Virus record (IMG/VR): IMGVR_UViG_2734482782_000005
Location: 1 to 41,225 of that record
Source: a virus
Lineage: Duplodnaviria; Heunggongvirae; Uroviricota; Caudoviricetes
Reading direction: 5' to 3' (one strand)
DNA length: 41,225 nt
Below, one piece after another: positions 38,865 through 41,225 of the stretch (positions within the stretch are counted from its first letter, which is position 1; each line of letters begins with the position of its first letter). The position numbers and the translations under genes were made by a program. A model generated the notes under the pieces. That model was not told the origin of the DNA. It saw only the letters and a program-made list of their open reading frames with translations, and ran no database searches.

Positions 38865-38950
38865 TGTGGCCTATATGTGTTAATTGCGGACGGATGTGCC
38901 TATCTGGATGGTGCCGAAGGTGCGACAAATGCACGAAGAAAAGACAATAA
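38861..38950 (+). CDS. Putative 29-aa cysteine-rich peptide (zinc-ribbon-like CxxC...CxxC)
   Basis: Manually translated MMWPICVNCGRMCLSGWCRRCDKCTKKRQ; ATGA overlap with upstream gene. Confidence 0.3.
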   Translation: MMWPICVNCGRMCLSGWCRRCDKCTKKRQ

Positions 38951-39022
38951 CAATCCTCGCACTCGCGGGGATTTCTTTTATCTGAACTCGCTACGGCGAG
39001 TTTTGTTTTATGGAGATGATAA

Positions 39023-39190
39023 ATGCACTTCCAAGTCACAGGTGAATGGAATGGAGAACCATTCAACAGAGTTATCGAAGCAGAGAACATCAACGACTGC
39101 TATGACCACTGGATGCTGTGGGCGCAGATAGCACATGCAGACGTAACCAATATTCGAATTGAAGAACTGAAAGAACACCAAGCCGTCTGA
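39023..39190 (+). CDS. Small hypothetical protein upstream of torI
   Basis: Manually translated 55-aa ORF (MHFQVTGEWNGEPFNRVIEAENINDCYDHWMLWAQIAHADVTNIRIEELKEHQAV), GGAG RBS, stop inside terminator hairpin. Confidence 0.4.
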   Translation: MHFQVTGEWNGEPFNRVIEAENINDCYDHWMLWAQIAHADVTNIRIEELKEHQAV

Positions 39191-39206
39191 TGGCGGTTTT
39201 TTATTG
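39183..39206 (+). terminator. Intrinsic terminator at end of early-left operon
   Basis: CCGUC-UGAU-GGCGG hairpin (one U.G) + UUUUUUAUU. Confidence 0.6.
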
Positions 39207-39212
39207 CCTGAT

Positions 39213-39228
39213 TTGCAGGTTCGATTCC
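39213..39228 (+). other. 16-nt tRNA T-arm-like fragment (TTGCAGGTTCGATTCC) upstream of torI
   Basis: Canonical T-stem/T-loop GCAGG-TTCGATT-CC; contiguous in tRNA register with the 3'-end core at 39522-39536. Confidence 0.5.
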
Positions 39229-39247
39229 CTATTCGGAGATAGCACTC

Positions 39248-39448
39248 ATGCAACACGAACTACAGCCTGATTCCCTGGTTGATTTGAAATTCATCATGGC
39301 TGATACTGGCTTCGGTAAAACCTTCATCTACGACCGTATTAAGTCCGGCGACCTGCCAAAAGCCAAAGTTATCCACGGGCGAGCAAGATGGTTATATCGT
39401 GACCATTGTGAATTCAAAAATAAGCTCTTAAGCCGCGCCAATGGGTAA
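39248..39448 (+). CDS. torI: Excisionase-like recombination directionality factor TorI
   Basis: 66 aa, MQHELQPDSLVDLKFIMADTGFGKTFIYDRIKSGDLPKAKVIHGRARWLYRDHCEFKNKLLSRANG, matches recalled E. coli TorI; GGAG RBS. Confidence 0.85.
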   Translation: MQHELQPDSLVDLKFIMADTGFGKTFIYDRIKSGDLPKAKVIHGRARWLYRDHCEFKNKLLSRANG

Positions 39449-39521
39449 AATAGCGGGTAAAATATTTCTCACATCTAAAAAATACCATTCCAATCAATCC
39501 CCTGCCGCTTCAAGTAGATGT

Positions 39522-39536
39522 CTGCAGGGGACACCA
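39522..39536 (+). other. Putative attR core: 15-nt copy of a tRNA 3' end (CTGCAGGGGACACCA)
   Basis: Sequence ends in CCA preceded by acceptor-stem-like AGGGGAC; matches recalled 3' end of E. coli argW and the KplE1 core repeat; host-like DNA follows. Confidence 0.6.
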
Positions 39537-39977
39537 GATACCCTTCAAACGAAATCTACCTTCACCCCGTAAAAGATGGGTTTGGCAGCACACTTGCCTT
39601 ATATCTACTCATTTTTACTGCAACAGGTTGAAATCTCAGCACTGTCAGAAAGCGCTGATGACTAAACAGCCCTGAGCCGGGCGATGTAACCATCACACAG
39701 AATCCTGATAGCGAAATATGGCGTGACTCGATACTTCACTCCGCAATGCATTCCTTGATGAATTCGCAGGACCGTGATACACGGGACAGGTCACTGAATG
39801 ACGACAATGTCCTGGAAATCAGCGAACCGCGCATCTGAAGTACATTTGAGCGACTGTACCAGAACATGAATGAGGCGTTTGGATTAGGCGATTATTAGCA
39901 GGGCTAAGCATTTTACTATTATTATTTTCCGGTTGAGGGATATAGAGCTATCGACAACAACCGGAAAAAGTTTACGT

Positions 39978-41225
39978 CTATATTGCTGAAGGTACAGGCG
40001 TTTCCATAACTATTTGCTCGCGTTTTTTACTCAAGAAGAAAATGCCAAATAGCAACATCAGGCAGACAATACCCGAAATTGCGAAGAAAACTGTTTGGTA
40101 GCCTGCGTGGTCAAAGAGTATCCCAGTCGGCGTTGAAAGCAGCACAATCCCAAGCGAACTGGCAATTTGAAAACCAATCAGAAAGATCGTCGACGACAGG
40201 CGCTTATCAAAGTTTGCCACGCTGTATTTGAAGACGGATATGACACAAAGTGGAACCTCAATGGCATGTAACAACTTCACTAATGAAATAATCCAGGGGT
40301 TAACGAACAGCGCGCAGGAAAGGATACGCAACGCCATAATCACAACTCCGATAAGTAATGCATTTTTTGGCCCTACCCGATTCACAAAGAAAGGAATAAT
40401 CGCCATGCACAGCGCTTCGAGTACCACCTGGAATGAGTTGAGATAACCATACAGGCGCGTTCCTACATCGTGTGATTCGAATAAACCTGAATAAAAGACA
40501 GGAAAAAGTTGTTGATCAAAAATGTTATAGAAAGACCACGTCCCCACAATAAATATGACGAAAACCCAGAAGTTTCGATCCTTGAAAACTGCGATAAAAT
40601 CCTCTTTTTTTACCCCTCCCGCATCTGCCGCTACGCACTGGTGATCCTTATCTTTAAAACGCATGTTGATCATCATAAATACAGCGCCAAATAGCGAGAC
40701 CAACCAGAAGTTGATATGGGGACTGATACTAAAAAATATGCCGGCAAAGAACGCGCCAATAGCATAGCCAAAAGATCCCCAGGCGCGCGCTGTTCCATAT
40801 TCGAAATGAAAATTTCGCGCCATTTTTTCGGTGAAGCTATCAAGCAAACCGCATCCCGCCAGATACCCCAAGCCAAAAAATAGCGCCCCCAGAATTAGAC
40901 CTACAGAAAAATTGCTTTGCAGTAACGGTTCATAAACGTAAATCATAAACGGTCCGGTCAAGACCAGGATGAAACTCATACACCAGATGAGCGGTTTCTT
41001 CAGACCGAGTTTATCCTGAACGATGCCGTAGAACATCATAAATAGAATGCTGGTAAACTGGTTGACCGAATAAAGTGTACCTAATTCCGTCCCTGTCAAC
41101 CCTAGATGTCCTTTCAGCCAAATAGCGTATAACGACCACCACAGCGACCAGGAAATAAAAAAGAGAAATGAGTAACTGGATGCAAAACGATAGTACGCAT
41201 TTCTGAATGGAATATTCAGTGCCAT
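39978..41225 (-). CDS. cscB: LacY-family oligosaccharide:H+ symporter, probably sucrose permease CscB
   Basis: 415-aa 12-TM MFS protein; collinear with LacY motifs (DKLGLKK, FDQQ); translation matches my recollection of E. coli CscB. Confidence 0.8.
   Translation of the reverse strand: MALNIPFRNAYYRFASSYSFLFFISWSLWWSLYAIWLKGHLGLTGTELGTLYSVNQFTSILFMMFYGIVQDKLGLKKPLIWCMSFILVLTGPFMIYVYEPLLQSNFSVGLILGALFFGLGYLAGCGLLDSFTEKMARNFHFEYGTARAWGSFGYAIGAFFAGIFFSISPHINFWLVSLFGAVFMMINMRFKDKDHQCVAADAGGVKKEDFIAVFKDRNFWVFVIFIVGTWSFYNIFDQQLFPVFYSGLFESHDVGTRLYGYLNSFQVVLEALCMAIIPFFVNRVGPKNALLIGVVIMALRILSCALFVNPWIISLVKLLHAIEVPLCVISVFKYSVANFDKRLSSTIFLIGFQIASSLGIVLLSTPTGILFDHAGYQTVFFAISGIVCLMLLFGIFFLSKKREQIVMETPVPSAI

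Follow-up and report, generated by a model that had tools for sequence, protein, structure and literature searches.

Layout of the Prophage and of the torI Module

The window, meaning the whole stretch of 41,225 nucleotides that was analyzed, is a prophage of the KplE1/HK620/Sf6/Kapi1 type at argW and a full-length, ordinary member of this published family. The window begins at the ATG of intS (1–1158, + strand), which marks the left prophage end and encodes a P4-type tyrosine integrase. The gene was identified from its sequence and from Pfam matches to the Arm-DNA-bind_3 (8.5e-26), Phage_int_M, and Phage_integrase (1.9e-38) domains, and it is annotated as intS in 1,899 E. coli records (1,895 genomes). 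The argW gene and attL fall just beyond the intS end of the window. In strain ws5-3, which carries a near-identical prophage, an intact argW with the core is followed by the same integrase gene intS. The P′ arm also lies outside of the window and is present in related attP and attL sequences. Open reading frames for a small membrane protein and a glycosyltransferase-like protein follow intS (1312–1800) and look like the gtrA/gtrB O-antigen modification genes, as found in KplE1 (yfdGHI) and in Shigella serotype-converting phages.

The gene for the recombination directionality factor (RDF, or excisionase), torI, is located at the opposite end of the prophage (39248–39448, + strand). It was recognized as an open reading frame with homology to annotated torI genes, and the 66-residue product gives a full-length match to PDB 1Z4H (E = 6.6e-43). 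The Shine–Dalgarno sequence GGAG of torI is found at 39235–39238 (+ strand), and GGAG is kept in 16 lineages. The gene order in the phage is thus torI, attP, and intS. This order, with attP between xis and int, has been published and is unusual (PMC8787464). An open reading frame of 43 codons (39441–39572, + strand) overlaps the torI stop codon, crosses the attR core, and has no Pfam match. The HK620 and Sf6 counterparts carry the annotations hkaB and gene 17, respectively, and the C-terminus of the product would be altered upon integration; it is probably not a gene. TorI modules of the Enterobacterales type were also found on short metagenome-assembled contigs labeled Actinomycetes and Parachlamydiaceae (L018 and L035), and these taxon labels are probably an artifact of binning or contamination.

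Upstream of torI, an early-left gene of 55 codons that is common to lambda-like phages was identified by homology at 39023–39190 (+ strand); in those phages it directly precedes xis-int. An intrinsic terminator, with its stem at 39180–39199 followed by a run of T, occupies 39180–39203 (+ strand) just before the left border of the module, and a terminator recurs at the equivalent position in several lineages. The homology of the window to lambdoid phages stops at approximately 39216. Across the family, the left neighbor of the module is either this lambda-type gene with its terminator or a P22-type xis gene of which only a truncated 5′ piece is left. The truncated piece (...SLTLDEAC(A/Q)FLKIS) abuts the T-loop element described below in K-12 KplE1 (L003, ~1925–1975) and in Salmonella phage Emek (L011, 1740–1795), and it was also observed in IMG/VR loci such as L061 and L065. 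We take it to be the N-terminus of a P22-type Xis. The arrangement suggests that the torI-attP-intS module replaced a xis-int module through junctions within xis.

Identity of the Two argW Segments

Two short segments of tRNA sequence flank torI. The 16-mer TTGCAGGTTCGATTCC occurs once in the window, at 39213–39228, and the 15-mer CTGCAGGGGACACCA occurs once, at 39522–39536. An unoccupied argW gene (L002, 1441–1515) ends in AATTGCAGGTTCGATTCCTGCAGGGGACACCA. The first segment is identical to nucleotides 46–61 of argW, an E. coli tRNA gene with CAGGTTCGATTCC, and the second to nucleotides 61–75. When joined with an overlap of one nucleotide, the two segments give the exact last 30 nucleotides of argW. 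The initial annotation had read the segments as tRNA 3′ pieces that match argW, abut with a one-nucleotide overlap into a 3′ end of ~30 nucleotides, and enclose torI with its ribosome-binding site, and all of this was borne out. The calculated chance expectation for an exact 16-mer is ~2e-5 in 2 × 41 kb, and shuffled sequences gave a mean of 0.04 matches with up to two mismatches allowed, so the match to argW is not due to chance.

The segment at 39213–39228 (+ strand), hereafter the distal copy, comprises the 5′ strand of the T-stem, the T-loop, and the first two bases of the 3′ strand. It is followed by CCTATTCGG in place of the TGCAGGGG of the tRNA. A degenerate tRNA 3′ end was considered after the 16-mer (GGAGATAGCA compared with GGGGACACCA). 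It was discarded, since 6–7 of 10 positions match, the GGAG is constrained as the ribosome-binding site, and the likeness is not significant by a hand count. No tRNA gene was detected in the window with ARAGORN. No Rfam tRNA match at E ≤ 10, and no tRNA-like structure, was found in 38900–39800.

The attR Core and Its Own T-Loop

The segment at 39522–39536 (+ strand) is the attR core and crossover site, as had been proposed. In other E. coli strains, the homology of unoccupied argW loci to the window begins at 39522; this comparison with an unoccupied attB had been put forward as a check, and both segments match argW in it. Bacterial DNA starts at 39537. The right bacterial flank of the window contains a gene for an oligosaccharide MFS transporter (39978–41225, – strand) where K-12 has dsdC; we presume that this gene is the sucrose permease gene cscB. 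The chromosome next to argW varies among strains. The published core is CTGCAGGGGACACCAT(T), of 16–17 nucleotides, for KplE1 (PMC2951348) and for Kapi1 (PMC8787464). The base that follows CCA at attR is G in the window, hence a repeat of 15 nucleotides.

The core has a T-loop homologue of its own. For its identification, 38 distinct attR and attP sites from E. coli, Salmonella, Klebsiella, Citrobacter, Enterobacter, Serratia, Pantoea, Erwinia, Edwardsiella, and other hosts were compared. Three positions to the left of TGCAGG, the six bases TTCGAT are found in register with argW. The columns of this hexamer agree with argW in 82–97% of the 38 sites, except for the C column, where the agreement is 55%. 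The next three bases are GT(A/C) in nearly all 38 sites, compared with TCC in argW. In the window the degenerate homologue is GTAGATGT (39514–39521, + strand), which adjoins the core on its left, and in most other genera it is TTCGATGT. The E. coli version, GTAGATGTC (39514–39522), is on this alignment a derived form of the TTCGAT-GT(A/C) pattern. The attP and attR sites match argW over ~24 nucleotides (39511–39536 in the window and the 38 related sites) save for this near-constant difference of three nucleotides, which probably marks the left edge of strand exchange.

The T-loop homology beside the core in the 38 sites makes the distal piece a duplicate and not a missing half. Judged from these alignments, the segment at 39213–39228 is a separate second copy of the argW T-arm, and the locus holds two T-loop copies, of which the proximal one is degenerate and the distal one exact. 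The initial annotation had preferred a single identity block of ~30 bp that was later split by the torI module. According to that account, the ancestral attP contained a contiguous 3′ segment of argW, into which a torI cassette of 293 bp was inserted between TTCC and TGCAGG. The two pieces are exact and abut in argW with a one-nucleotide overlap, which resembles a precise insertion in which a minimal target was duplicated. The right end of the presumed insert, however, is T-loop-like (TTCGAT) and in register in 38 sites from many genera, and an unrelated cassette would not end in this way. The presumed insert also holds the functional P arm.

A search for the unsplit form gave the same answer. 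With a synthetic query for the unsplit junction, the best E. coli matches included only two-piece matches with torI still present, and the unsplit pattern, in which the 16-mer runs straight into TGCAGGGGACACCA, gave 0 hits in IMG/VR. The distal copy has just 12–15 nucleotides in common with argW outside of E. coli, which makes its exact abutment with the core a detail specific to E. coli. Insertion of torI into a contiguous tRNA segment is thus regarded as very improbable. A synthetic fusion of the argW T-arm to torI, as would result from a deletion via the 16-nucleotide repeats, was found at ≥80% coverage in 0 of 5,426 E. coli genomes.

The initial annotation had also suggested that the location of the RDF gene within the tRNA homology couples excision to restoration of the tRNA. 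This does not hold. An attR of 135 bp, which lacks the 16-mer, suffices for excision of the K-12 element in vitro (PMC3509656), and the distal copy is not required for that reaction. The left primer of this fragment (attR-IHF2, CTCTTAAGCCGCGCCAATGG; PMC3509656) maps to 39426–39445 of the window, within the last torI codons. The fragment starts 23 nucleotides before the torI stop codon. Its approximate equivalent in the window is 39426–39563 (+ strand), which extends to ~27 nucleotides beyond the core, with an estimated right end, as the K-12 flank differs. Only the last ~23 nucleotides of torI overlap the functional attR arm, and this overlap is already known. The argW gene is restored at attL through the core borne by the phage, as seen in the sequence of strain ws5-3 and as published (PMC8787464).

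Two GGGTAAAAT repeats extend over the torI stop codon (39444–39464, + strand). By sequence likeness, they are candidate arm-type sites of the P arm for IntS, whose arm-type sites share TAAA (PMC2951348). In the HK620 record, an attP repeat is annotated over the equivalent bases. The five sites at which TorI acts lie in attL and not in attR (PMC2951348).

The att Core Labels of the CUS-3 Record

The 16-mer upstream of torI is also found in K-12 KplE1, HK620, Sf6, CUS-3, and CUS-3-like prophages. In the GenBank record of CUS-3 (CP000711.1), TTGCAGGTTCGATTCC is labeled as the "attL core" (L004, 1693–1708) and as the "attR core" (L005, 1–16), where the record ends. This labeling treats the 16-mer as a genuine att core for integration and excision, and it is indeed a direct repeat of 16 nucleotides, with one copy in argW at attL and the other close to the right prophage end. 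However, in the CUS-3-like prophage of E. coli S88 (L169, 2170–2500) the 16-mer is followed by torI and the standard core CTGCAGGGGACACCAT, and only then by dsdC. The arrangement in S88 implies that the CUS-3 record omits torI and the real attR and that its "attR core" label is wrong. CUS-3 also encodes an integrase of the IntS type, its attL runs on into the standard core and the P′ arm, and the published KplE1 and Kapi1 cores are the standard sequence (PMC2951348; PMC8787464). The 16-mer is almost certainly not an att core.

The alternative offered in the initial annotation, that two att-type events are superimposed, came close to the data in requiring two separate tRNA-derived blocks. The database labels are corrected accordingly: the "attR core" of CUS-3 is not an att core. 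The case also serves as a caution that not every direct repeat with tRNA likeness is an attachment site.

Distribution and Conservation of the Distal Copy

The distal copy marks the left border of the exchangeable torI-attP-intS module. The exact 16-mer is present in 75 of the 80 E. coli loci from IMG/VR. In these 80 loci, the deviation from consensus is 0.4% per site in the 16-mer and 4.3% at the third codon positions of torI, and the 16-mer is thus ~10 times less polymorphic. The length of the match to argW reaches 16 nucleotides in E. coli only; it is 15 nucleotides in Serratia (CAGGTTCGATTCCTG) and 12–13 nucleotides in most others.

The part that is retained across genera is the decamer GTTCGATTCC, which occurs once in the window (39219–39228, + strand). 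The decamer contains GTTCG at 39219–39223, corresponds to the T-loop part of attB, and has its first base 29 nucleotides upstream of the torI ATG. Elements with the decamer were found in Escherichia, Salmonella, Citrobacter, Enterobacter, Serratia, Pantoea, Erwinia, and Edwardsiella. In 16 lineages, 9 of the 10 positions of the decamer, GTTCGATT(C/T)C, do not vary, a figure that holds for carriers only because these lineages were picked for carrying the motif. The flanks of the decamer show a majority identity of 38–88% in the same 16 lineages, and torI averages 78% nucleotide identity and 61% identity at third positions. The GTTCG starts at –29 or –28 relative to the torI ATG in 14 of 17 sequences. 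A tandem second copy of the decamer is found in the lineage of Erwinia phage Midgardsormr38, with a period of 16 nucleotides (L008, 1785–1816), and in L123, with a period of 13 nucleotides. A degenerate second copy, CTCGATTC, is found upstream of torI in L017.

The element is absent from Klebsiella phage RCIP0114, Erwinia phage EhrS_49, and several prophage lineages, and it has been deleted in lineage L021. Since several lineages, isolated phages among them, do without it, the element is dispensable for the recombination cycle.

Most plausibly, the distal copy would derive from argW DNA captured on the attL side or from an older att event. It might then be a functionless scar of such an event (an aberrant excision, a capture on the attL side, or a former att site) that is merely carried along at the module border. 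Fragments of tRNA genes are common as scars at integration hot spots, the element coincides with the left border of the exchangeable module, beside truncated P22-type xis remnants or a terminator, and several phages do without it. A scar should decay, however, and the decamer is invariant where its flanks and the third positions of torI have diverged. The fixed distance to the ATG and the tandem duplication in separate lineages are also not expected of a scar. A functionless remnant is for these reasons considered unlikely, and the alignments indicate that the decamer is under purifying selection.

Promoter and RNA Readings of the Element

The tRNA likeness would be incidental if the conserved bases belonged to a promoter of the pI type. 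Activated by cII and starting at or after the torI ribosome-binding site, such a promoter would provide integrase without the RDF during lysogenization. The HK620 and Sf6 records place a "cII protein" binding site and a "pI" promoter on exactly these bases, and the HK620 equivalent of TTGCctgatTTGC (39204–39216, + strand) is annotated as the cII-binding site of a "phage integration" promoter. The tetramer TTGC appears twice in the window, at 39204 and 39213, and lambda-like phages carry TTGCgtgtaaTTGC at the equivalent position with respect to the upstream gene that they share with the window. The boxes of cII sites are spaced by six nucleotides (TTGC-N6-TTGC), but the spacing here is N5, and the first box in K-12 is TTAC. 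Other genera keep the decamer without the second TTGC, and the invariant block would fall in the spacer. A consensus scan for a sigma-70 promoter at the left border of the module gave no match, which also counts against a pI-type promoter. We consider this promoter reading improbable.

An element acting in RNA was considered as well. A hairpin resembling the T-arm, or pairing of UUCG with YGGA at the Shine–Dalgarno sequence, could limit the translation of torI on read-through transcripts. In the minimum free energy fold, UUCGA pairs with UCGGA of the ribosome-binding site, and GGAG is preceded by C or U in 15 of 16 lineages. A full hairpin (GACAGG...CCTGTC) is formed by the versions from Edwardsiella and Pantoea stewartii. 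The fold does not surpass that of shuffled sequences (z = –0.83), though, and most lineages have not maintained the T-stem. Neither an Rfam family nor a tRNA signal was found for the region, and a pairing of four base pairs fails to explain ten invariant bases. Regulation through RNA is accordingly judged decidedly improbable.

A short upstream open reading frame (GTT CGA TTY) with a stop codon 5–6 nucleotides before the torI ATG is seen in many lineages. This candidate was rejected, as 7 of 18 sequences contain no start codon for it and the frame is also closed 8–9 codons upstream in L017, L025, and L026.

A Candidate Operator for torI

The element at 39219–39228 would most likely serve as an operator for the recombination proteins, acting on torI. 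Taken as a whole, the locus is a KplE1-type prophage with an ordinary core and, apart from it, a selected copy of the T-arm that would function as a protein operator for torI, a reading which we favor with modest confidence. TorI, IntS, or both could bind to the decamer, ~29 nucleotides before the torI start, and so control the expression of torI. Binding by TorI is suggested by the pentamer GTTCG, which the decamer has in common with the TorI sites of attL; the cores of those sites are GTTCG, GATCG, and GTCCG (PMC2951348). Binding by IntS is suggested by the identity of the decamer to the T-loop portion of attB beside the crossover, since the decamer copies the half-site that the core-binding region of the integrase would contact.

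Around torI, 8 additional copies of GTTCG were counted, compared with 4.6 expected, and the excess is not significant. An inverted copy (CGAAC) is located at 39256–39260 of the window, in codons 3–4 of torI and 32 nucleotides downstream of the GTTCG of the decamer. It is found at codons 3–4 in E. coli only and is absent in other lineages.

In a more specific version of the operator reading, the tRNA T-loop copy was co-opted as a mimic of the attB half-site for feedback control of the RDF, and the TorI pentamer GTTCG is itself derived from the T-loop of the target tRNA. This version is offered as tentative, and we regard it as possible but doubtful.

The promoter and regulatory region of torI has been described as uncharacterized (PMC2951348), and excision is said to hinge on expression of the RDF. 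In this well-studied model of excision control, a conserved element of ten bases that keeps a fixed distance to the RDF start offers a concrete candidate for how torI is controlled. The T-loop identity of the bases upstream of torI and their deep conservation appear to be undescribed in the literature searched, and an earlier mention is possible.

Comparison with Known Systems

The module itself is already known, and the distal copy is a new element within it. The KplE1 (CPS-53), HK620, Sf6, and Kapi1 modules have the same integrase type, TorI, core, and order of torI, attP, and intS as the window, together with the 16-mer upstream of torI. The window differs in its right flank, where an MFS transporter gene is found instead of dsdC, and in its attR repeat of 15 nucleotides.

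The xis-int-attP region of lambda with its pI promoter resembles the window in several respects: the early-left gene with its terminator lies upstream, the leftward operon ends in an RDF gene, and TTGC boxes occupy the corresponding place. In contrast to lambda, attP is here located between the RDF and integrase genes, and the RDF sites are on the integrase side (attL). The boxes are spaced by N5, and the conserved block is a copy of a tRNA T-loop, which lambda lacks.

Some RDFs double as transcriptional regulators, such as Cox of P2 and Vis of P4. TorI represses intS through sites of the GTTCG type beside the –35 box (PMC2951348). The decamer would be one further candidate site of this kind, before TorI's own gene. 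The TorI sites of the P′ arm work cooperatively in arrays and have C after GTTCG, whereas the decamer is single in E. coli and has A at this position.

Elements borne on tRNA genes carry a duplicated 3′ segment of the tRNA at the far end, and extra partial tRNA copies are common. Identity blocks and direct repeats at tRNA-borne prophages and islands were reportedly described by Reiter in 1989 and by Williams in 2002. The distal copy differs from such repeats in that it lacks the tRNA 3′ end and lies inside the phage, ~310 bp from the crossover. It moves as part of the phage, and instead of decaying it has been conserved across genera.
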